A stretch of 64,000 nucleotides of DNA from an uncultured Acidobacteriota bacterium (lineage in GTDB: Bacteria > Acidobacteriota > UBA6911). The position numbers and the translations under genes are program-made. Positions 7,461-39,562 of this stretch are shown here, piece by piece. Below the pieces are notes generated by a model, which was not told the origin of the DNA, made no database searches, and saw nothing but the letters and a program-made list of their open reading frames with translations. Each line of letters begins with the position of its first letter. Within the stretch, counting starts at the first letter, position 1. Where the stretch lies: assembly GCA_963827655.1 (NCBI GenBank), contig CAWHCF010000017.1:12580-76579 (forward strand), in the 5' to 3' direction.

Positions 7461-10265
7461 ATGTCTTACGGACGCTGGATCTTGATCGGCTCGCTTGCGG
7501 TCGTGGTGTCTTCGCTTTCCTTTGCTCAGACGCGGAGGCCGAGTACCCAGCGCCCCAGGCCCGAGACGACTCGTCCCGGTCACGTCTACATGCAATACAT
7601 GAAGGATTTCGAGGAAAGAGAGGACGTCACCAGAGCCGTCCTGAAGAACGGACTGACAGTTCTGGTCAACGAGTCCCGTACTGCGCCCCTGGCGGCAATC
7701 TCGATTTACGTAAAAGCCGGTTTCCTTCAGGAGCCGGATGAAGTCGCGGGTGTTTCGCGCGTGATCGAGCGCATGCTGTTTAAAGCCACCTCTACGCGCG
7801 GTGCCGGCGTGATCGACAAGGAAATACGGGCGATGGGCGGCGTCCTGCGCACTTCGAGTAACTACGATCATTCCGCATTCCTCATGGTGGTGCCGTCGAG
7901 TCAATGGAAAAAGGCTTTGGAAATACAGGCTGACGGGTTGCTGAACCCCTTGTTCCAGCCGGAGGCCCTGAAGAGAGAAGTCGAAGCCATCCTTGACGAG
8001 GCCAGGGAGAAGCGCGACCACCCTCAGGGCTCCTTGTCCGAGAAGCTCCTGGCTCTTGGATTCACTCAGCATCGTCTCCGGCGGCCGACCATGGGGAGAG
8101 AGGACGCCCTTCAGCGTCTCGGCCCGGAGAAACTTCTGGATTTTCACAGAAACATTTACCTGCCTGGCCGCATGGTGCTCGTCGTCTCGGGAGACGTTAA
8201 CACGTCGGAGATTCTGAACGAGACCGTGCGACTGTATGGAAAGAGCCGGAGTGCTGGTGAGAAGCTCTCCATCTCTGCCACAGAACCGGAACAGGGCAAC
8301 TTTCGCTACCAGGAGGTCCGGGGGCCGGTCCAGCTTCCGCAACTGCTTTTCGGCTTTCACGCCCCTCGGCCAAGCTCTGAGGACTACCCGGCCTTCGAAG
8401 TTTTGAGGGCACTCATCGGCATGGGCGAAGGCTCCATCCTGGCGCGCAGGCTCAAGGCGGAAAAAAAGATGATCCTGCGCGGATCGGCGAACCTCCTGGC
8501 AATTCCGGAGTTAAGTTACCTCATTCTTGAGATGGAGGTCGAACCCGGGAACATAGATCAAAGCGAGCTGTCAGTTTTAACGGAATTGGAGGTGCTCAGA
8601 CGCGAAGAACCGGACGCGGCGGATCTGGAGCGGGCGCAGGCCTTGCTGGAACGGAAGCGCTGGGGCGACATGCAAACCCTCGAGTCGCGGGCGGAGACGT
8701 TTGCGCGGATCGAGGCCCTGCGAGGCTGGCGAGGGATGAATGACTATGTCGGCGCGTTTCGTAAAGTGAAACCTGCCGACGTAACTCGGGTGGCAAAAAA
8801 ATACCTGAGCCTGGAGAGTTGTTCTGTGCTCGAGTACCTGCCGGAAGGAGGAGAGCCGCGAAATCTATCCACGGAGGTCATTCAGAAAACGCTGCGCGGA
8901 CTGCTCGAACCTTCCACCCAGGAAGTGCTCGCGGCCCGGGAGAAGGCTACCAGGCTGGCGTTCCAGGCCGGGGAGCGTGCGGGCGACTTCAAGTACAGTG
9001 AAGTTCGTTACCCGATGCAAAAGGCCTCGGTTCTCCGAGGGCCCGAGCTCTTCATCCGGGAGGATCATACTGCGCCCGTCATAGATCTCGGTATTTTCCT
9101 GCCGGGAGGGAAGCTGTCCGAGAACAAGGAAAACGCCGGCATCACCTCGCTGATGCTGGCTACCATGCTCGCCGGAGGGACCAAGGAGATGGTTCCGGAG
9201 CGGTTCTTTCAGCAGCTGGAGATTTTCGGAGCCGAAATCGTTCCGGTAGTCGGCGACGACTACTTTGGTTTTTACTCTTCGGTCCTGTCGCGGAACATCG
9301 AGCGGACCATGGATCTACTGCTCGAGTTGATCCGGAGGCCGCAATTCGATCCGGAGCAGGTTGCGCGTCAGAAAGAATTACAGCTGGCCGGAATCCGGCG
9401 TGATTCGGATTCAAGTTTCGCATGTGCTTACCGCCTGTTGGAGCAAGGCCTCTTCGGGGACTTTCCTTATGCCTTGAGGGCGGCCGGAAATGAGAGCAGT
9501 GTTTCGTCGCTGACGGTCGACGCACTTCAAGCCTGGTACAAGTCTCAGGTGCAGGAGCGCAAGCCACTGGTTGTAATCATAGGCGATACTCATGGGACCA
9601 ATCTCGCCCGCTATTTCGTGCGCAATTTCAGCGGGTCCCGGTATCAGGATGTCAAGCTGGCTGAAACTTTCCCGAAACCGATCGAGAAGAGACGACGTCA
9701 GACAGGCGAGTGCGGCAGCAACCAGGGTATTGCGATGATTGGTTTCCCCGCGCCGCCCGATGGCGACGAAGACGCTTTCGCGCTCGAGGTGCTTCAGAGT
9801 TATGCTTCCGGACCCGGGGGCCGTCTGGCGGAACAACTGAAAGAGCGGCACGCCCTTATGCGCAATGTTTCGATGAACTATACTCCGCGCCTTCGAGGCG
9901 GCCTGATAGCAATATATACGCTCAACAGCACGGAAGACGCGGAGAAATCTCTCAAGGGCCTCGAAGAGGAAATCTTGAGACTTTCCGACACGCCTGTCTC
10001 GTTCAAGGAGTATCGCTCTGCCGTTAATTCCGCCGTCGGCGGCTACTTGGTCAATCACCAGCGACGTCCGATTCAAATCTCAACCTTGGTCCGTCACATC
10101 CTGAACGGCACAGAAATCGAGGGAATGAATCAGCACGTGTCGCAGCTGCAGGCCGTCAACCAGGAAGACCTGCAGGAGGTCGCGCGCCGCTTTCTCAAGA
10201 TGGACAGGTCGGTGACTGTGGAGCTACACGGCAAATCCAATAAGCCTGCCGGAACTCAACCCTAG
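7461..10265 (+). CDS. Two-module M16 (pitrilysin/insulinase) family protein, predicted non-catalytic
   Basis: 934-aa ORF with signal peptide MSYGRWILIGSLAVVVSSLSFAQ. Two M16-like halves are present. The position of the HxxEH zinc motif reads GVSRVIERMLFKAT (RxxER). Confidence 0.8.
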   Translation: MSYGRWILIGSLAVVVSSLSFAQTRRPSTQRPRPETTRPGHVYMQYMKDFEEREDVTRAVLKNGLTVLVNESRTAPLAAISIYVKAGFLQEPDEVAGVSRVIERMLFKATSTRGAGVIDKEIRAMGGVLRTSSNYDHSAFLMVVPSSQWKKALEIQADGLLNPLFQPEALKREVEAILDEAREKRDHPQGSLSEKLLALGFTQHRLRRPTMGREDALQRLGPEKLLDFHRNIYLPGRMVLVVSGDVNTSEILNETVRLYGKSRSAGEKLSISATEPEQGNFRYQEVRGPVQLPQLLFGFHAPRPSSEDYPAFEVLRALIGMGEGSILARRLKAEKKMILRGSANLLAIPELSYLILEMEVEPGNIDQSELSVLTELEVLRREEPDAADLERAQALLERKRWGDMQTLESRAETFARIEALRGWRGMNDYVGAFRKVKPADVTRVAKKYLSLESCSVLEYLPEGGEPRNLSTEVIQKTLRGLLEPSTQEVLAAREKATRLAFQAGERAGDFKYSEVRYPMQKASVLRGPELFIREDHTAPVIDLGIFLPGGKLSENKENAGITSLMLATMLAGGTKEMVPERFFQQLEIFGAEIVPVVGDDYFGFYSSVLSRNIERTMDLLLELIRRPQFDPEQVARQKELQLAGIRRDSDSSFACAYRLLEQGLFGDFPYALRAAGNESSVSSLTVDALQAWYKSQVQERKPLVVIIGDTHGTNLARYFVRNFSGSRYQDVKLAETFPKPIEKRRRQTGECGSNQGIAMIGFPAPPDGDEDAFALEVLQSYASGPGGRLAEQLKERHALMRNVSMNYTPRLRGGLIAIYTLNSTEDAEKSLKGLEEEILRLSDTPVSFKEYRSAVNSAVGGYLVNHQRRPIQISTLVRHILNGTEIEGMNQHVSQLQAVNQEDLQEVARRFLKMDRSVTVELHGKSNKPAGTQP

Positions 10266-10345
10266 CGTCTTCGCGTCTCAGTGGTTCAGCCATCAGCACC
10301 AAACCACCACCAGGACACAAGACATAAAGAAGCGCAAAGATCGCC

Positions 10346-12469
10346 GTGTACTGGAGCCGAGGTAAGCTTCCGATTCGATCACGGATGGGGATTTTCACAC
10401 TCGTCCTGATCATAATATGGTTCCTGAGACTGGTCCCGGCGATCCGGGGCGCTTTATCGCCTGGCCTGTTGCTGGTGTTGGACCTCACCGGTCTTCTGCT
10501 GGTCATTCCAGCCATTTACTATATCTGGAAGCTCTTTACCTTCGTCAAGAGTGAGCTGCTCTGGAAAATACGCCGCCGCTTGATCCTGGCACACATGTTT
10601 ATCGGCGTGATCCCGGTCATCCTGGTTCTCACGATTCTTTACGTGTCTGCGCTGCTCTTCTACTACCAGCTCAGCTATTACCTGATTCAGAACCAGATTG
10701 GTATTCACATCGCGCAGGCCCACGCATTGAATCTTTCACTGCGCAGCGCGATGGAGCAGGCTCTGGCTCGTTCATCCGCGGCACCCGGCGTTTTGAGATC
10801 TGTCCTGGATCGCGACGGCAAGTATGTGCTGGGGACTTACCCATCCGCCTCCATCATTCTACGCATCCAGGATCAAACATCCGGTCAGGTCTCCGTAGAT
10901 GCGAATCGGAGCATGAAAAAGGAATGGCTGGGGAACTATCAGCTTCCTCGCTGGACCAGCGATCATGAATTCAGCGGACTCGTGGTCGAAGACTCCCAGC
11001 CGGAATTGTATCGTGGGGCCGACGGCTCAGACGACGATGGGGGGCGGGGAAGGCTTTTTCTGCGAAGTCTGGTCTTCAGTGATTTCAGATCCGACACTCC
11101 ATTCAGCCTCGAGCTTTCGGTTCCCTTGGATCAGTACCTGTTGGATCGGCTGAAAGCGGCCGTGGGCCAGGATCTGCTTCTGGCCCATCACGTCCCTGCG
11201 TCGAGTCTCAACGTGATGCTCCAGAACACCGATATTCTGCGGCGGAATATCTTGAGTGCCACATTTGATATGACGGAAGAGCAGCAATCGCTGGGTCGTC
11301 CGGTCTGGTCGATTCTCCTGTTTCCGGTCTCGTGGAACACCGGAAATGAAGAGGGCCGCGCGGCAACCGAAGTCCTGTTCGTCGAACTGTCGACCTCGAA
11401 ACTGATCCAGAACGTCTTTCGCTCCGAGAGTAATGTGAGTCAAACCATTCTCGGGCTCTTGCGCATCGTGTTGGGTTTCTTTCTTGCCATCGAAGTCATT
11501 TCGCTTTTGGTCGGAATCGTCTTGACCAAATCGATTACACAGGCGGTCCACAACCTCTATCGCGGGACTGAATTCGTCAAGCGCGGCGATTTCAGCCATC
11601 GAATTGTAGTCAAATCGAACGACCAGTTGGGCGCTCTCGCCAAGTCCTTCAATCAGATGACCGACTATGTTCAATCGCTGGTCAAGGAGCGTGTGGAAAA
11701 AGAACGGCTGCAGCGAGAACTGGAGATCGCCAAGGAGGTCCAGGAACAGCTCTTTCCGCGCGAAGCTCCGCGCATGGAGCGCATGGAACTCACCGGACTC
11801 TGCCTGCCGGCGCGAGTGGTCAGCGGTGACTATTACGATTTTCTTAAGTTCGATGCGCACAGCCTGGGGATGGCGCTGGGGGACATTTGCGGCAAAGGGA
11901 TTTCGGCCGCCCTCTTGATGGCGAACCTTCAAGCGACGCTCCGCAGCAACGTGATCAACCTCTTCGGCGACGAAAACGCCCCCGCCGAACGGCTCCAAGG
12001 GGAGGGAGCCGTTGCCCAGGTGGTCAAGATGATTAACCGCCAGATCTACAATTTCACGGCATCCAATAAGTTCGCCTCGTTTTTTTATGGAGTTTACAAC
12101 GACGCCAATGCTTCGCTCACGTACTGCAATGCAGGACACAATCCGCCCCTGTATTTCCAAAACGGCGGGTTTCAGCGCCTCTCGACCGGCGGCACCGTGG
12201 TCGGGATATTTCCCGACGCAGAATATCAGCAGGCTACACTGTATCTGCAGCCCGGCGATCTCCTGCTAGCCTATACCGACGGGATCGTGGAGAGCGTGAA
12301 TGAATACGGTGAGGAATTCGGCGAGCAGAGGCTGATCCAGATTCTCGAGCAGAACCGGCAGCTTTCGGCGCAGGAAATCCAGAAGGTGATCGTCGACCAG
12401 GTCTTGGACTGGGCCTTCGAGCAGGAGCGCGACGACGATATGACTCTGATCGTGGCAAAATTTAGTTGA
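10346..12469 (+). CDS. Membrane sensor with HAMP domain and PP2C-type (SpoIIE/RsbU-like) serine phosphatase domain
   Basis: 707-aa ORF with N-terminal TM helices and a HAMP-like segment (...FVKRGDFSHRIVVKSNDQLGALAKSFNQMTDYV). SpoIIE motifs are VVSGDYYDF, GDICGKGISAALLMANL, YCNAGHNPP, AYTDGIVES and DDDMTLIV. The start may be ATG 10385. Confidence 0.85.
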   Translation: MYWSRGKLPIRSRMGIFTLVLIIIWFLRLVPAIRGALSPGLLLVLDLTGLLLVIPAIYYIWKLFTFVKSELLWKIRRRLILAHMFIGVIPVILVLTILYVSALLFYYQLSYYLIQNQIGIHIAQAHALNLSLRSAMEQALARSSAAPGVLRSVLDRDGKYVLGTYPSASIILRIQDQTSGQVSVDANRSMKKEWLGNYQLPRWTSDHEFSGLVVEDSQPELYRGADGSDDDGGRGRLFLRSLVFSDFRSDTPFSLELSVPLDQYLLDRLKAAVGQDLLLAHHVPASSLNVMLQNTDILRRNILSATFDMTEEQQSLGRPVWSILLFPVSWNTGNEEGRAATEVLFVELSTSKLIQNVFRSESNVSQTILGLLRIVLGFFLAIEVISLLVGIVLTKSITQAVHNLYRGTEFVKRGDFSHRIVVKSNDQLGALAKSFNQMTDYVQSLVKERVEKERLQRELEIAKEVQEQLFPREAPRMERMELTGLCLPARVVSGDYYDFLKFDAHSLGMALGDICGKGISAALLMANLQATLRSNVINLFGDENAPAERLQGEGAVAQVVKMINRQIYNFTASNKFASFFYGVYNDANASLTYCNAGHNPPLYFQNGGFQRLSTGGTVVGIFPDAEYQQATLYLQPGDLLLAYTDGIVESVNEYGEEFGEQRLIQILEQNRQLSAQEIQKVIVDQVLDWAFEQERDDDMTLIVAKFS

Positions 12470-15374: not shown

Positions 15375-16193
15375 ATGGCTGAATATCACGTCTTCGTCGT
15401 ATCTGACGGTACCGGCGAGACCGCGACGAAAATGTCCAAGGCGGCGCTGTTACAGTTCACGCCGCGCAACACGATCTTTACGCGTCACAGCAATGTGCGC
15501 TCGATCGAAATGATTCGCGAAGTGGTAAAGGACGCGCAACGGGATCGCGCCCTGGTTATTCACACCTTTGCCTCGCAGGAACTCCGCCGCGCGATGGAAG
15601 AGGCCTGCCAGGACCGCAACGTTCCAAGCCATGATCTATTGGGATCCCTTTTCGAGACGCTGCAGGAGTTCTTTGGTGTTTCCCCCACCGAGAAGCCAGG
15701 ACTCTTGCATCAGGTGGACGACGACTACTTCGAGCGCGTCGATGCTCTTTCGTTCACAGTGCGTCACGACGAGACACGGTCCGCCGACGGCCTGCATGAG
15801 GCCGAGATCGTCCTGGTCGGCGTGTCGCGTACCTCGAAGACTCCTCTGAGTGTCTATCTCGCCCAGGAGGGGTGGAAGGTAGCCAACATGCCGGTGGTGA
15901 TCGGAGAGAAGCTGCCTGAGGAGTTGTTCCAGCTTGACCAATCGCGGATCGTGGGGCTGACGATTACTCCGGAGCGGCTGGCCGAAGTGCGGAAGGCGCG
16001 ACTCTCCCGCCTGGGAACCGCCGACTCCACGTATGCGGATCTGAAGCGAGTTACCGAGGAGCTCGAGTACTGCCGGAAAATCTTCGACCAGAATCCGCGC
16101 TGGTTGCGCGTCGACGTCACCGGGAAATCGGTCGAGGAGATCGCTTCAGAAATACTTGACAAGATCGTCGGCAAGGAGCGGCGCCTGCAGTGA
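15375..16193 (+). CDS. ppsR: Pyruvate,phosphate dikinase / PEP synthase regulatory protein (bifunctional kinase-pyrophosphorylase, DUF299)
   Basis: 272-aa ORF. It starts MAEYHVFVVSDGTGETA and has the P-loop-like GVSRTSKTPLS, both hallmarks of the PSRP/PDRP family. Confidence 0.8.
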   Translation: MAEYHVFVVSDGTGETATKMSKAALLQFTPRNTIFTRHSNVRSIEMIREVVKDAQRDRALVIHTFASQELRRAMEEACQDRNVPSHDLLGSLFETLQEFFGVSPTEKPGLLHQVDDDYFERVDALSFTVRHDETRSADGLHEAEIVLVGVSRTSKTPLSVYLAQEGWKVANMPVVIGEKLPEELFQLDQSRIVGLTITPERLAEVRKARLSRLGTADSTYADLKRVTEELEYCRKIFDQNPRWLRVDVTGKSVEEIASEILDKIVGKERRLQ

Positions 16194-19275: not shown

Positions 19276-19300
19276 GGCGCTTGTTTTGCGCCTGTTTCTT
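19276..19300 (+). terminator. Weak intrinsic-terminator-like hairpin after the TonB-domain gene
   Basis: GGCGC-ttgtttt-GCGCC (19276-19292) followed by the T-rich TGTTTCTT. The stem is short (5 bp). Confidence 0.3.
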
Positions 19301-19343: not shown

Positions 19344-19766
19344 ATGAAATCCTTGATCGCAATCTGTGTTCTGCTGCTATACGGTGCGCCGGAGTTGACG
19401 GCTAAGTGGCAAGGCCGTTCCGACGATTCGTCGGCTCCCAGAATCACCCTGGAAGAGTTCAAGAGACTTCTCGAGTCTGACAGTATCGTCGTGTTGGACG
19501 TGCGCAGCCCGGAATCTTACCGGGAAGGCCACATCCCCGGCGCGATCTCGATACCGAATGACGCGGTCGTTTCCCGCGTGAATGAGTTGAAGGGATTCAA
19601 GAAGCCGATTGTCACCTATTGCAGTTGATCGGCCGAACAGACCAGCGCCCGTGCGGTGCTGACGCTGCAGAGCCTGGGAATCGGCAAGGCGAGCGCTCTC
19701 CTGGGGGGCTACCGCGCGTGGCAAGCCGAAGGTAAACCCGTGGTCAAGGGCGACAAACCCAGGTAA
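19344..19766 (+). CDS. Periplasmic single-domain rhodanese (sulfurtransferase) with in-frame TGA at 19626-19628. It is either a candidate selenocysteine codon or a nonsense mutation.
   Basis: The ORF track ends at ...KKPIVTYCS*. The same frame continues SAEQTSARAVLTLQSLGIGKASALLGGYRAWQAEGKPVVKGDKPR to TAA 19764-19766, which is the missing C-terminal third of the rhodanese fold. Signal peptide MKSLIAICVLLLYGAPELTA. Confidence 0.6.
19631..19674 (+). promoter_or_regulatory. SECIS-like stem-loop immediately 3' of the in-frame UGA
   Basis: Hand-folded. Upper stem is 19643-19649 (CAGCGCC) paired with 19655-19661 (GGUGCUG, one G-U pair), with loop CGUGC (19650-19654). Lower pairs are C42:G64, 19638-40 with 19665-67, and 19631-33 with 19672-74. 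The loop GU sits 26-27 nt from the U of UGA. Confidence 0.4.
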
Positions 19767-29490: not shown

Positions 29491-30681
29491 GTGGGATTCC
29501 ATTCGATAGGGGAAGCGCTGGAAGATATTCGCGACGGCAAAATCATCATCGTCGTCGATGACGAGGACCGCGAGAACGAGGGGGATTTTACCCTGGCCGC
29601 CGAGAAAGTGACGCCGGAAGCCATCAACTTCATGGCCCATTACGGTCGCGGTCTGATCTGTCTGCCGCTGACGGCCGAGCGCCTGGACCAGTTGAATATT
29701 CCGCTGATGGTGGAGGGAAATACGAGTAAGTATGGAACTGCCTTCACAGTTTCGATCGAAGCTCGGCACGGTGTTACCACCGGCATTTCCGCCGCCGACC
29801 GCGCGACCACGATTCTAACGGCGATCAATCCGAGGAGCACGCCATCGGATCTGGTGCGGCCAGGACATGTGTTTCCGCTGCGCGCGCGGGCGGGCGGAGT
29901 CCTGGAACGAGCGGGCCAAACGGAAGCTGCGGTCGATCTCGCGCGTCTTGCCGGTCTCTCGCCCGCCGGCGTCATCTGCGAAGTCATGAACCAGGATGGC
30001 ACGATGGCCCGCATTCCGGAGCTGCGCAAAGTGGCCCGCCGCCACCGGCTGAAGATCATCACCGTGGCCGATCTGATTGCCTTCCGTTTGAAAAACGAAA
30101 CCTTCGTTCACAGGATTACCGAAGCCGATGTTCCCACCGAATTCGGCGAATTTCGGGTGATCGTGTTTGAAAACTCGCTGGACCACCAGCATCATGTCGC
30201 GCTGGTTAAGGGGGTCATCGATCCGAATGAGCCCACGCTGGTGCGCGTGCAATCGCAGTCGACCATGGCGGACGTATTTCATTCCCTGCTCAGCGAGAGC
30301 GGCGCGCAGTTGCGCGCGGCGCTGAGCATGATTGATGGGGCTGGAGCCGGGGTCGTGGTGTACTTGCGCCAGGAGGGCGGCGGAACGGGACTGGCTGAAG
30401 AAATATGCGGGTATGGGTTGCGCCGGCACAGGCCCGTGGCCGCAGAAGCCGGCGCATGGCTCGAGTCCAACCCGGACCTTCGGGTTTACGGCATCGGGGC
30501 GCAGATTCTAACGCAACTGGGCGTCCGAAAGCTGCGCCTGCTCACGAATCACCCCAAGAAGATTATCGGGCTTCAAGGCTATGGCTTGACGGTGATCGAG
30601 CAGGTTCCGCTGGTAACGAACCGGTCGGAACTTTACCTGCGAAAGGATTTGAGTCCTGGGAAGCGCGAGACGCCAAGCTAG
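29491..30681 (+). CDS. ribBA: RibBA-type protein with an intact DHBP synthase half and a GTP cyclohydrolase II-like half lacking the zinc cysteines
   Basis: N-terminal half carries [16 protein letters not shown] and [14 protein letters not shown]. In the C-terminal half the positions of HSECLTGD...RCDCG read QSQSTMAD...LSESG. Confidence 0.85.
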
Positions 30682-35119: not shown

Positions 35120-35476
35120 ATGCCCATTCGCACGCAGCAAGAAGAGCCGGGTTTGCTTGTAGCCACTGTAAGCGGACGCGTTCATTACCGTGAGTTTCGG
35201 CCGCTGTGGCAAGAGAGTGCTGAGGCCATTGGACGGCTGGGCAAAATAAGAATCCTCATCGTGCTCGACAATTTCCAGGGATGGGAACAAAGTGAGGGAT
35301 GGGGAGACACGAGCTTTCAGGAAAAATACGACCCATTCATCGAACGCATCGCTATTGTGGGGGATAGTCAATGGAAGGACCTCGTCCTCGCGTTCGCAGG
35401 CAAGCCGTTTCGAACTCTCCCGATTCAATATTTCCTGCCCACGCAACTCGCGGAAGCGCGCGCCTGGCTGGGTTGA
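35120..35476 (+). CDS. SpoIIAA-like (STAS/SEC14-like, DUF3478) protein
   Basis: 118 aa, ...LVATVSGRVHYREF...KIRILIVLDNFQGWE...WGD...ERIAIVGDSQWKDL..., as in the SpoIIAA-like family. Confidence 0.65.
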   Translation: MPIRTQQEEPGLLVATVSGRVHYREFRPLWQESAEAIGRLGKIRILIVLDNFQGWEQSEGWGDTSFQEKYDPFIERIAIVGDSQWKDLVLAFAGKPFRTLPIQYFLPTQLAEARAWLG

Positions 35477-35484
35477 GTCAAATC

Positions 35485-36151
35485 GTGCTGCGATTGAAGT
35501 CGCCCAGTGGTGGCAAGCGGCGCCTGGGAATAGTGGCTTCGAAGCTCGCCCTTTTCTTTGCGTTCACTCTCCCGGCGTCGGCCCAGGTTTTCGAGCTGAC
35601 GCCACTGTTCGGCTATCGAATGGGCGGCACGCATCCAGGTGAAGAACGAAGGGGAGAGTACGTCCATCAAGGCCAGGTTGAAGGACGGTTTTGCCTATGG
35701 TTTGGCGGCAGGATATCGGTTCGACGAAGAGTCGGTCATTGAGTTCCGATGGGCACGCCAGCATAGCCGGCTCCGCTTACCGGATCCTGTCTCCCCGGAT
35801 CTGGTCTCGCCGATCGATACCACGATCGACCAATTCCACTGTGATTTTACTCACGAGTATGAGTGGGACCATTATCCCGGCATCCGGCCTTATGTCCTGG
35901 GAAGTGCAGGCGCCACCAGATTCGGCCTCCCCGGTGAAAGCTTCACGCGTTTCTCTTTCGGCCTGGGCGGGGGCGTGAAGATTTCCATTCATCCGCGCGT
36001 GCGTTGGCGCATTCAGGCAGAGTGGCTTCCCATCTGGATCGAGCCGGAGGCGAGAGGCCTGACCTGCAGGGGCGGCGTCTGCGCTGTGTTCTTGTCGGGG
36101 ACCCTGACGCACCAGTTTGAGGTCAGCTTCGGTCCCGTTTTTCATTTTTGA
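35485..36151 (+). pseudogene. Small outer-membrane beta-barrel protein, frameshifted (+1) between signal peptide and barrel
   Basis: Frame of ORF 35371..35742 gives ...LGIVASKLALFFAFTLPASAQVFELTPLFGYRMGG. Frame of ORF 35639..36151 gives ...IKARLKDGFAYGLAAGYRF...GGGVKISIHP...FEVSFGPVFHF. The break lies between 35600 and 35640. GTG 35485 or TTG 35494 are candidate starts. Confidence 0.6.
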
Positions 36152-36252: not shown

Positions 36253-39200
36253 CGACGATGCGGACGCGGCCGGTACGTGGGGAGCGGGCAACAAAGCCAC
36301 GATGGGGGTTCCGCCGAGTACAACCTGGCAGACGATTATTCTGCGCAGAATAGTCGCTAATCCCTGTCCTTTTTCTTCCGTTTTTCCCTGCGTGATCTCG
36401 AAGATCGTAGTCGTGCCGCTGATCTCGTTCCCCACGACGAGCAGCGGCCCCTTGATCGGACTGTCCTTCTCATCGATGAACAAGATCCCTTCAGGCCCGA
36501 GGTCGCCCGCCTGCGGGGTGCCGGGCGCGGAACCGAAGTCGCGCCGGTTTACGTAGGTGATGAAGACAGGTTCATGAGGATCGCTGATGTCGTACACCAC
36601 CACACCGCCGATGCGCTCGAGCCCTATGAACGCGTAGGTGTTTCCTGCCACCGTCCCGATCGCGATTCCCTCCGGCTCCGGGCCTTTGTCATCACTGCGG
36701 TTGTCGAAATCGTTGCTGGTGTTAGAGGCGTTGAAGTTGGCCGGAGAGGTGATGGCGGTTATCCATTCCAGCTGGTCGCTGCTGTCGAATACCAGCTCGC
36801 CGGTCTCGCTCCAGATGGAAAACGACCTGGTACCGAAGGCAAACAGTTGTTCAAAGGCGCCCGTCGCCGGATTCCTGCCCAGCGTGTTTGTGATATTCAG
36901 CCGGCCCAGGTTGGCATTGTTCTTGAGCACAGCACCGTCAGGAAATGCCGCCGGGTCCAGGTTAACGCTGCCGATGCGCACTGCTTCCTGGAAAGCGCTG
37001 TACTCGCGCGCATCCCCTTCGTTCGCGGTCACCAGGTAGGTATCGGAACGAGATTTATAAGAAGCAATTGCCGTCGGGCAAGAACAGGCCCTTTACCGGC
37101 CACTGTCGGATGTTGATCTTGTTATCCCGGTCGCTGGCATCGAGGCCGTTCAGACGGACATCGATGATGCCGAGCTGCTCCGGTTCGGGCACATAGTTCA
37201 AGGTGAACTTGCCGTCCGGATGGATCGTGATATTGGCCACGCCGAAATCGTTGTCGTTGATCACCGCGAGCGTCCATGGATCAATAACCGCCAATCCTTC
37301 GACTTTCTGCGCGCGATTGTAGCCGGCTTTGTTGAGATCCACATGCAGGCTCTTCGCGATCGGCTGGATGCCGTTGGCCACCATTTCGGCGACGCTGAGC
37401 TGATCCACGGTCTTGCCCGTCGATCCCACGACGCCTGTGAGCGCCGTCACGTCCGTGGCGCCGGTGAGATTGAACCGGTAGATCTTCTTCTCTATGTGGG
37501 CCGGATTGTCATCCGGCAGCGCATCGTCATCGCGCTCCAGCGCCAGGAACTCGCCGTATCCGAGCGAGACGGCGTCACCGATCTTGTCCGCGCGGGTATT
37601 CGGTTCGGGGCCGAGATCCGGATTGTCCAGCACGTAGATGAACTGCCGGGTGGCTCGCGTCGTGGGATTGAACTCGACCACTCGGATGTTACGCATCTGG
37701 TTGAGCGCACTGTTCGCGAGGGTCGGCGGATTGCGCAACGGGCTTTGCATGAAGGCATAGATTTTGCCGTCGTCATAGGCAACCCCCTCGAAGCCCCGGT
37801 TCTGGCGGCGTTGGCCGAGCACCGCGGGAAGGACCTCGGTCCCGTACGTGCCGGCCGGCTTGACCGGCTGCGGCGGCTGTGCCCATCGGAACGAAGCGGT
37901 CAAGCAGCACTCCGGCGGCGCTGAAGTGGTAGATCGCCGGGCGATACTCGTCAACCATCCAGAATGTGCCGTTGCTTGGATCGATGACGATGCCTTCGAG
38001 GTCGGCGCCAAAGGGGTCGAGCGGGAGAAGGTTGCCGAGCAGGTTGACGGGCACCTCGTCGTTGTAGGGCGTATTACCTGAATCGCCCAGGGCCGTGTTG
38101 GACAATCCGGTGAGCGGGGCTCCAGACGCCCAGCTTCAGCGGAATGATCTGGGTCACGTCGATCCGGTTGCCGTCCAGCTCGAACCGCACCAGTTGTGGA
38201 GTGAAGTCCGGCAGAAGGAAAGGGCGTAATATGCCGGTCGGCTCGGCATTAGGACCACGGTCGGTGTGGGTGATGAACTTGAGCGCTCCGCTGACAGGAT
38301 GAGTTCCCTCGAAGTGCAACCCGGAGAATCCGCCCAGGAAGAGCGTCTGGTTTCCCAGTGTTCTCCCGATCGGGGGGAGAGATGACGAACGGAAATTGTA
38401 GCGTCTTCGCGGTTGCCTCAACCTTGCTATGGTCCTTGTGACCGAGTGCTGCGAGCTTTGTAACCACGGCTCTCTTGATGTCGATGATGGCAATAGCATT
38501 GTTCTCCTGGAGTGTCACATAGGCTGTCTTCGAATCGTGACTGACGGCAATGTACTCCGGTTCCATGTCCTGCGAGACTCTGGCGCCCGGCCCGAAGATG
38601 CGGATTCCAGGGGGAAGCGGGCCGGTATTGAACGCCCGAAAATCCACGGTGCGCACATCGTCCTGCTTCAGCTTCGCGACGTCACCTTTCATCTGGATGA
38701 TGCTCACCGAGCCTTCGGGATCGATGGTATAGGTGTCGTTGGGTTCCCCTTCGTTGGCGATCAGCAGCCAATCCCCATCCGGTGAGAAGGTCAACATGTC
38801 CGGGAGCGCCCCGACCTGCTAGAACGTTGAGGACTCTCAGGTCCTTGGCGCTGAAAAACACGACCTTGCCGGGATCGGTCTTGATGGCGTTTTCAACCGC
38901 CACAGCGACGACACCTTTGTCCACGGCCACGCTGTTGGCAACGGCCCCGTAGGGCCTGACGTCGATCTGGGCCACGCGGGTGACAGCGGCTGGATTCGCT
39001 ATAGTCAGCACGTCGACCGTGGCCGACAGGGCATTCACGACGAAGAGCCGCTGGGTCTTGGGGTCGTGCGCTACGATCTCGGCGCCCCCCGCATTGAAAA
39101 TGCCGCTCGCATAGGAACCGATCGGCTTCAGCTTGATTGATTCGCGGTCGTCCTGGTCGTCTGCCGGAGCAAGTGTCGCGGTCAAGGCGAGGGAAACAGC

Positions 39201-39257
39201 CAGCAGGGGACCCAACAAGGTCGAAAGCCTGGTTCCACGTGTCAAAGTTTGTTTCAT
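36211..39257 (-). pseudogene. Choice-of-anchor-I family secreted protein with a nested phytase-like (esterase-like activity of phytase) domain, broken by five +1 frameshifts
   Basis: Six consecutive minus-strand ORFs read as one protein: 38682..39311, 38249..38797, 38074..38499, 37773..38105, 37055..38011 and 36211..37032. Landmarks in order are signal peptide [178 protein letters not shown] and [16 protein letters not shown]. Confidence 0.8.
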
Positions 39258-39562
39258 CGGGCGTTGAAATGCCATGTAGCGCATGAGCAGCCTCCGGGTC
39301 GTAGAGATCACAAGATTTCGGATGCGAAGGAGGGAGATCGTGCCCTGGAGATGTGAACCATTTTTGACAGTCTTGTGACTTAAAGGTTAAGAACCTGCGG
39401 CGGAAAACGCAGCAGTACCTGTCCAGGAACGGGCAACAGATTTACAACTCGGTCCAATACGGAGGAACAGTTAAACCTCTTTTGGTGTCAAAACAGCGGG
39501 CTTTCTTGGTCGCAAAGGTCAGGCGTGCCGGGTGAGTTCAAGCAAGTTCAAGGAGGATAAGC

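Follow-up and report, generated by a model that had tools for sequence, protein, structure and literature searches.

We analysed a gene for a single-domain rhodanese in a stretch of 64,000 nucleotides (nt) from an uncultured Acidobacteriota bacterium (contig CAWHCF010000017.1; the whole stretch is hereafter called the window). As argued below, an in-frame UGA in this gene is very likely decoded as selenocysteine (Sec). The open reading frame (ORF) as called starts at the ATG at 19344, reads ...KKPIVTY-C93-S94 (with AGT at 19623-25 for Ser94) and stops at a TGA. Past this TGA the same frame reads SAEQTSARAVLTLQSLGIGKASALLGGYRAWQAEGKPVVKGDKPR, which adds 45 more codons up to a TAA (see Table 1 for all coordinates). 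With a Cys replacing the stop, the read-through product of 140 residues matches the Pfam family Rhodanese (PF00581) over residues 35-129 (E = 1.5e-18; 67.6 bits against a gathering threshold of 22.2) and covers positions 1-102 of the 102 in the profile, thus a complete domain. Since this match spans the TGA, the downstream frame represents the missing third of the rhodanese fold, and the 94-residue product of the ORF callers is consequently missing both the active-site loop and the final third of this fold. An earlier note on this DNA had described an ORF that ends after ...IVTYCS and a frame that is kept across the TGA to give the rest of a rhodanese; its coordinates and codons check out, and the full-length domain match bears out the remainder. 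The same holds for its remark that TGA is a normal stop elsewhere: this codon ends 16 of the 36 large window ORFs (including the three cited sites at 16191-16193, 35474-35476 and 36149-36151) and is the commonest stop in the window, so the code is not reassigned.

Table 1. Features of the rhodanese gene and their coordinates in the window.
Feature	Position	Strand	Remarks
Selenoprotein gene, very likely intact and complete	19344..19766	+	140 codons plus stop; single-domain rhodanese; in-frame UGA is codon 95
Predicted N-terminal export signal (MKSLIAICVLLLYGAPELTA)	19344..19403	+	charged start, hydrophobic core, L-T-A before K21
Cys93 codon TGC	19620..19622	+	invariant in the family; end of the active-site strand
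UGA very likely read as selenocysteine, residue 95, motif C-S-U	19626..19628	+	TGA in 21 aligned homologues plus the L018 paralogue
Extended lower stem	19631..19674	+	able to form in the window sequence; not conserved
Conserved SECIS-like hairpin	19643..19661	+	7-bp stem 19643-49/19655-61; apical loop CGUGC 19650-54
True stop TAA of the full-length product	19764..19766	+	

When proteins were searched with the read-through product, about 20 homologues came up, ranging from 98% down to about 41% identity and all ending in ...P-I-V-[TA]-Y-C-[SGTA], along with two full-length homologues that have a Cys at the next position (P0008, ...IVTYCSCAAEETS; P0011, ...IVTYCSCSAEQTSARAV). For seven different "truncated" proteins we fetched the DNA, which amounted to ten contigs (L001-L010, about 44-88% identity). 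The stop is a TGA in 10/10, and the frame remains open for 45-46 further codons that encode the conserved rhodanese C-terminus. A scan of one genome per bacterial species (the GTDB species representatives) yielded TGA at this column in 13 more loci and TGC or TGT in about 45, a ratio that is biased to the Cys forms as one of the two scan patterns demanded a Cys codon. The TGA loci of the scan belong to Vicinamibacterales, Thermoanaerobaculia and unclassified Acidobacteriota, and to Chloroflexia and Anaerolineales within the Chloroflexota; in total, the same architecture is seen in 34 other TGA-form genes or contigs. The approximately 45 genomic relatives with TGC or TGT at the Sec column read YC[AS]C[PA]xExxS, so that the Cys-bearing YC-x-C-P-x-E-x-x-S-A subfamily, which the earlier note had mentioned, does exist. 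Cys is found at this column in the catalogue proteins P0008, P0011, P0217 and P0255 as well.

The shortened form dominates in protein catalogues. We ran phmmer with the N-terminal 94 residues only, against 1.84 billion proteins in the form of 50%-identity cluster representatives. Among the best 150 matches are 60 single-domain proteins, and 57 of these end exactly at query residue 94 (the ...YC[SAT] ending was present in 21/21 sampled single-domain representatives). The three full-length ones carry Cys, Cys and Ser at the Sec column. Likewise, the close relatives found in the public catalogues of JGI, ENA, Logan and NCBI (P0001-P0019 and P0169-P0304) are nearly all about 90-115 residues long with a ...YC[SAT] end, and many of them go by the name of "rhodanese-related sulfurtransferase", "PspE" or "SseA". 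This near-universal shortening is a systematic truncation at the Sec codon. One close catalogue relative of 161 residues (P0241) is full-length and has Ser, not Cys or Sec, at the column (...SIVTYCASPEEHASARAAL...).

Both sides of the TGA are under constraint. Across the family alignment (A1) the residues E98, S101, G112, A118, G121, G122 and W126, all past the TGA, are invariant, and C93 is invariant both in this alignment and in a further one (A4). Comparing the window gene with L001 (86-88% identical), we obtained a dN/dS (ratio of nonsynonymous to synonymous substitution rates) of 0.27 downstream and 0.36 upstream of the TGA. In a rough neighbour-joining tree the Sec forms fall into at least 3-4 clades that are interleaved with Cys clades, pointing to repeated exchange of Sec and Cys. 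Hence three of the properties by which selenoprotein genes are recognised (PMC1088965) are found here: the TGA is kept among orthologues, Cys homologues align to it and both flanks are conserved.

Both forms can also occur side by side. In a metagenome-assembled genome (MAG) of the Pyrinomonadaceae (L018:9845-10828, + strand) a Cys form at 9845-10321 is followed in tandem by a Sec form at 10349-10828. This Sec paralogue has its TGA at 10688, carries the lipobox LLTAC, keeps the CGUGC loop discussed below and reads ...LIVTYCS*PNEHTSARAV.... The Cys copy may serve as a selenium-independent backup beside the selenium-dependent one.

Seventeen nt past the U of the UGA starts a hairpin with a G+C-rich stem that resembles a Sec insertion sequence (SECIS). 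The earlier note had drawn it as a 44-nt stem-loop, and the 44-mer 19631-19674 indeed folds with a 7-bp upper stem, a CGUGC loop and lower pairs out to 19631/19674. We aligned this region, without gaps, for 21 TGA-form genes and used 25 Cys forms for comparison. In the Sec forms the upper stem (columns 18-24 with 30-36, corresponding to 19643-49 with 19655-61) and the C-G-U-G-C loop are nearly invariant, so this part of the drawing stands as folded and as conserved. The lower pairs hold only in so far as they can form in the window sequence; they are not conserved, given that the RNAalifold consensus retains inner pairs only (four pairs kept, with a small covariation term). The apical loop exposes G26 and U27 (numbered from the U of UGA as 1), which agrees with the proposed GU-containing loop at bacterial SECIS distance. 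The working definition of a bacterial SECIS asks for a stem-loop that is stable, lies downstream of the UGA and has an apical loop of small size in which a guanosine is present (PMC1088965); here a stem-loop lies just past the UGA and its small apical loop contains G. Within the window there is a single occurrence of the SECIS core motif. An Rfam scan gave no match to a SECIS or tRNA-Sec family, its sole match being V_AS9 (see below).

The hairpin is under nucleotide-level constraint only in the TGA forms. Paired cells make up 89% in the 21 Sec forms against 64% in the 25 Cys forms, whereas control pairings of the same columns with a slid 3' partner reach 22-54% and 29-55%, respectively; none of 500 shuffles matches the pairing or covariation score observed for the Sec forms. 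Compensatory changes among the Sec forms affect three pairs: 18:36 turned from C-G to G-C in six cases, and 21:33 and 24:30 both turned from C-G to U-A. A U at position 27 occurs in 19/21 of the Sec forms as opposed to 4/25 of the Cys forms (Fisher p = 6.6e-7). The codons for S-A-R-A are virtually frozen in the Sec forms (AGC in 20/21, GCC in 20/21, CGU in 15 of the 17 Arg codons and GCG in 18/21); where Cys forms have the same residues, the codons vary, the loop Arg being encoded by CGC (7), CGG (2), CGU (1) or CGA (1). The use of CGU keeps a U beside the G in the apical loop. A covariance model built from the 21 Sec-form sequences (R1) scores its training set at 48-65 bits and most Cys forms at no more than 31 bits (one reaches 41). 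It also picked up the Sec paralogue of L018, which had been held out and is located directly downstream of the Cys-form gene, at 39 bits (E = 5e-8).

At the protein level, the AlphaFold (AF2) model used is that of the Cys homologue P0011, which is 48% identical to the window protein (predicted local distance difference test, pLDDT, 85). It shows an ordinary single-domain rhodanese, the best matches in PDB being 2hhg, 3tp9, 6mxv, 3nhv, TSTD1 and YgaP (template modelling score, TM, 0.6-0.7), with less than 30% identity to all solved rhodanese structures. In the model the strand 96-100 ends at Tyr and is followed by the loop C101-S-C103-S-A-E106 and a helix from Q107. C101 corresponds to C93 of the window protein, and in the HMMER alignments it falls on the catalytic Cys of 1yt8, 6mxv and 3tp9. 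A putative nucleophilic Cys thus opens a six-residue loop between strand and helix, an assignment that we regard as moderately secure. Because the HMMER alignments and the AF2 secondary structure agree, Cys93 most likely occupies the canonical nucleophile position, with Sec95 two residues into the six-residue loop C-S-U-S-A-E. The Cys/Sec pair in the catalytic loop that the earlier note had suggested is thereby supported, as the model has the first Cys where the strand ends, with the Cys/Sec column following two residues into the loop.

Sec95 itself as the canonical catalytic residue is a possible but less preferred reading, since HMMER and AF2 put the first Cys at that place. In its favour, the spacing from U95 to the conserved Gly equals the one in GlpE.

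The homologues start with signal peptides, lipoboxes (LLAAC in L004, LSGC in L044, LTAC in L018, FVAC in L023) or membrane anchors, and on these N-terminal features the rhodanese family is probably extracytoplasmic.

Rhodanese selenoproteins as such are not new. A 2026 review lists five forms of selenoproteins with a rhodanese domain (PMC13188914), one of which, the CxU rhodanese selenoprotein, has been described in the literature and is credited to Zhang & Gladyshev 2005, Bioinformatics 21:2580 (PMC13188914; also in PMC9312934). Deltaproteobacterial symbionts of worms are rich in the CxU family, and a UxU variant has arisen among them, in Olavius symbionts (PMC1976440). On reading of its motif, this UxU form is a CxU protein with a second Sec; none of the sequences examined in our analysis has a TGA at the column of the first Cys. 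Selenoproteins have further been reported in some Acidobacteria and Chloroflexi (PMC1794560) and for Occallatibacter riparius (PMC12013277).

The best NCBIfam match of the window protein is NF041203 (rhodanese_LYCAU, "rhodanese-related (seleno)protein") with 73.5 bits (E = 1.2e-20), the next family scoring 50.5 bits. The match is co-linear (residues 27-133 against model positions 16-123 of 126); it misses, however, the curated equivalog cut-off of 115 bits. Similarly, 18 relatives score 46-101 bits with none (0/18) past the cut-off, and NF041203 is the best NCBIfam family for each one tested. Compared by name and model alone, the motif T-Y-C-S-U resembles the L-Y-C-A-U of the family name, with residue 94 at model position 84. 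As a query for a protein search, the highest NF041203 scorer (L073) returned only generically named Cys forms, and a full-text literature search for "LYCAU" gave nothing relevant. Judged from sequence, the window protein would work like the NF041203 family and has a motif resembling the one in its name, and with its score below the family's cut-off it appears to belong to a divergent sister clade. Owing to this divergence from the model, the genes are annotated as short rhodaneses by NCBI and JGI.

Searches for the Sec machinery covered the window and 1.4 Mb of fetched loci, using ARAGORN, motif scans and tblastn (with E. coli SelA, SelB and SelD as queries). Neither the 64-kb window nor the sequence flanking the Sec-form loci yielded a selA, selB, selD or tRNA-Sec. 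The sole match in all this sequence is a full-length selB-like gene in L023 (Pyrinomonadaceae) at L023:7007-9007 (+), encoding 666 residues that are 30% identical to E. coli SelB over the whole length. It lies 860 nt upstream of a Cys-form rhodanese (9866-10342, +) with one ORF of 176 residues in between. L018, another Pyrinomonadaceae genome, carries a Sec form. In this single case the neighbourhood may be a coincidence or may hint at a link with selenium metabolism.

The window gene itself stands alone: a terminator-like hairpin (19276-19292) follows the upstream TonB_C gene, none follows the TGA, and hemD converges on the gene from the other side. This context of TonB_C and hemD-hemC-hemA is restricted to close relatives of the window lineage (nearest named matches of the window HemA are 61-64% identical), and when the ORFs lying within 5 kb were compared all against all for 46 loci, no shared neighbours emerged beyond these. 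A scan of the window for ORFs joined across a TGA with coding-like G+C content at third codon positions (GC3) on both sides gave, apart from ordinary junctions, no other candidate than the rhodanese gene.

Taken together, the conserved UGA, its pairing with Cys, the translated downstream frame and the conserved and constrained hairpin make it very likely that 19344-19766 (+) is an intact selenoprotein gene, whose UGA at codon 95 is decoded as selenocysteine. The organism would have to decode Sec, because an in-frame TGA, a constrained frame and a constrained hairpin would otherwise not persist across many lineages. By analogy with the SECIS of E. coli fdhF, the hairpin inside the coding sequence would direct recoding of the UGA at 19626-28 by tethering SelB-GTP-Sec-tRNA(Sec) to the ribosome while the UGA is in the A site. 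With selenium or SelB limiting, translation would stop at the UGA and leave an inactive fragment of 94 residues, precisely what gene callers report. Cys93 and Sec95 might then form a sulfur- or selenium-transfer or redox couple, in which one residue carries a persulfide or selenosulfide and the other resolves it through a Se-S bond; the C-x-C homologues would be an all-sulfur version that performs the same chemistry less efficiently.

A number of observations weigh against this interpretation, and they have to be set against its rivals. That the gene is a pseudogene cut by a nonsense mutation, or a product of sequencing or assembly error, from which only a non-functional fragment of 94 residues remains, might be argued from the fact that gene callers stop at the TGA and that at least one gene in the window is truly broken (by a frameshift plus an in-frame stop), so that lesions do occur in this assembly. 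Nonetheless, the same TGA recurs in more than 30 independent contigs and genomes of two phyla, down to about 35-45% protein identity, and the downstream frame is always open and conserved, with the low dN/dS given above. It is not credible that the same lesion, or an error at one and the same codon, arose independently in all of them, and we consider truncation already refuted and extremely improbable. Where the earlier note had left the choice between a selenoprotein and a nonsense-truncated gene, the TGA at the same column in 10 contigs, 13 genomes of two phyla and a held-out paralogue decides for the former. Improbable too, though less drastically, is a UGA that is read through without Sec (by a near-cognate or suppressor tRNA for Trp, Cys or Arg), or at which translation terminates while the downstream 36-45 codons are expressed separately, for instance from the GTG at 19656. 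In its favour are the lack of Sec machinery in the sequence searched, the presence of a GTG-started ORF of 36 residues at 19656-19766 and the Ser of the full-length P0241. Against it, the column shows the classic Sec/Cys signature, alternating between TGA and Cys codons only but for a single Ser, and a hairpin with a G/U loop lies at SECIS distance under selection that is specific to the TGA forms. Moreover, pieces of 94 and 36 residues cannot assemble a rhodanese fold (the latter being without the loop), the curated family that comes closest is one of selenoproteins, too, and has a C-x-U motif, and one Pyrinomonadaceae genome has a full-length selB while another of that family carries a Sec form. 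That the window protein stays below the cut-off of this family, as noted, is a further point against the selenoprotein reading.

The hairpin deserves separate scrutiny, since in the window sequence alone it is thermodynamically unexceptional. Folding z-scores amount to -0.87 for the 44-mer and -2.8 for the 25-nt core, and for the 65 nt past the UGA (z = -1.46) the fold of minimum energy is a different stem. The G+C-rich codons of S-A-R-A-A tend to form a stem anyway, as the pairing level of the Cys forms and the good folds of L019 and L024 illustrate. One could therefore regard the hairpin as a by-product of the conserved T-S-A-R-A-A-L in G+C-rich genomes, with Sec, if inserted at all, depending on another element; the few consensus pairs and the small covariation term of RNAalifold are in line with this. 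Because the peptide partly forms the stem by itself, the discriminating evidence is the freezing of codons and the loop rather than the stem. For identical amino acids the Sec forms use almost exclusively AGC-GCC-CGU-GCG, and the Cys forms do not; U27 is strongly enriched in the former; the two kinds of compensatory change preserve the stem; and R1 separates the Sec forms and the held-out paralogue from most Cys forms. We thus judge the by-product explanation very improbable, and prefer the reading of a hairpin that serves Sec insertion at the UGA.

As to the extent of the family, the window gene is a divergent member of the already known C-x-U rhodanese selenoproteins, in a branch that is cut short by gene callers, and it leaves the known picture of Sec decoding unchanged. 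Whether the branch amounts to a distinct clade of C-x-U rhodanese selenoproteins that has gone unrecognised, is very large (57 or more clusters at 50% identity), comprises exported or lipid-anchored proteins and belongs to soil Acidobacteriota and Chloroflexota is a more speculative proposition, which we hold to be possible but rather doubtful. If true, such a clade would have undergone repeated switches between Sec and Cys, with tandem Sec and Cys paralogues retained in some genomes (L018); the use of Sec in soil Acidobacteriota would be far commoner than curated annotation shows; and the family might serve extracytoplasmic trafficking of selenium or sulfur (one Cys member, in L023, adjoins selB). 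The NF041203 cut-off is too strict for these proteins, hence the selenoprotein model of NCBI misses the clade. With one model made for the clade, or with the cut-off lowered, hundreds of gene calls would be put right and the hosts flagged as Sec-decoding. The clade suggests that selenium use is under-counted in abundant, mostly uncultured soil Acidobacteriota and Chloroflexota, and its natural Sec/Cys pairs, tandem paralogues included, offer a test of what selenium contributes to the chemistry of the C-x-U loop outside the cytoplasm. We consider the finding of moderate interest: the clade is large, concentrated in soil Acidobacteriota and Chloroflexota, and nearly always mis-called as a fragment of about 95 residues.

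Several other observations were made along the way. In two Acidobacteriota genomes, at L015 (9269-10339) and L020 (9266-10333), both on the + strand, a protein of about 355 residues consists of a C-x-C rhodanese of the same family as the window gene fused to an N-terminal domain that resembles S-adenosylmethionine (SAM) methyltransferases. A MAG of Ca. Binataceae contains a rhodanese fused to an ion-channel-like domain (L063:9908-10204 onward, +) with an in-frame TGA at ...VVYCGKFT*HRAAEA..., after which the frame continues for more than 300 codons; its Myxococcota homologue (L075:9998-11272) has Cys at this position (...VVYCGGPTCPRAERA...). The two seem to form a further Sec/Cys pair, the motif being C-x4-U. 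Within the window, the Rfam match to V_AS9 (Vibrio antisense RNA AS9) is located at 29588-29691 (-) with 51.7 bits against a gathering threshold of 50. It runs antisense within the ORF 29491-30681 (+), and probably reflects a conserved coding region instead of a real small RNA (sRNA). The broken gene mentioned above, a choice-of-anchor-I / phytase-like gene, is found at 37058-39386 (-). Positions 11-94 of PF22494 match in frame 38685-39386 and positions 102-239 in another (38252-38818), which indicates a frameshift near 38.7-38.8 kb, and an in-frame stop near 38249-51 precedes the phytase-like part. This lends some support to the remark in the earlier note that frame breaks (ten +1 breaks) exist elsewhere in the window, although our heuristic scan is too noisy to count them and confirmed is this one gene.

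Compared with known systems, the window protein shares its fold with the single-domain Cys rhodaneses (GlpE, PspE, YgaP and TSTD1; structures 1gmx, 2jtq, 5hbo and 6bev), where a Cys also ends the central strand, with a loop of six residues and then a helix behind it. The clade differs from these by a second invariant redox residue (Cys or Sec) at loop position +2 and a conserved Glu at +5 (C-x-[C/U]-x-x-E); in addition, it is without the usual basic or Gly-rich CRxGx[RT] loop and is predicted to be exported or membrane-anchored. Among selenoproteins, the CxU rhodanese is the closest counterpart: both it and the window protein consist of one rhodanese domain, about 126-140 residues long, in which Sec comes two positions past a conserved Cys, and the name "(seleno)protein" of NF041203 covers both Sec and Cys forms, as found in the window clade. 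The other rhodanese selenoproteins, i.e. forms 1, 2 and 4 with UxxS/UxxG and TsoB with UxxxxU (PMC13188914), likewise have Sec in or at the active-site loop, but at a position or in a motif that differs from the C-S-U of the window (the TsoB model matches the window protein weakly, with 20.7 bits against a cut-off of 805).

The hairpin finally resembles the SECIS of E. coli fdhF in lying inside the ORF just past the UGA and in having a small apical loop with an exposed G-U; the fdhF loop bases are G23 and U24, the counterparts of G26 and U27 in the window. It differs in that the loop is one codon farther from the UGA, the upper stem has no bulged U and the loop reads CGUGC instead of GGUC.

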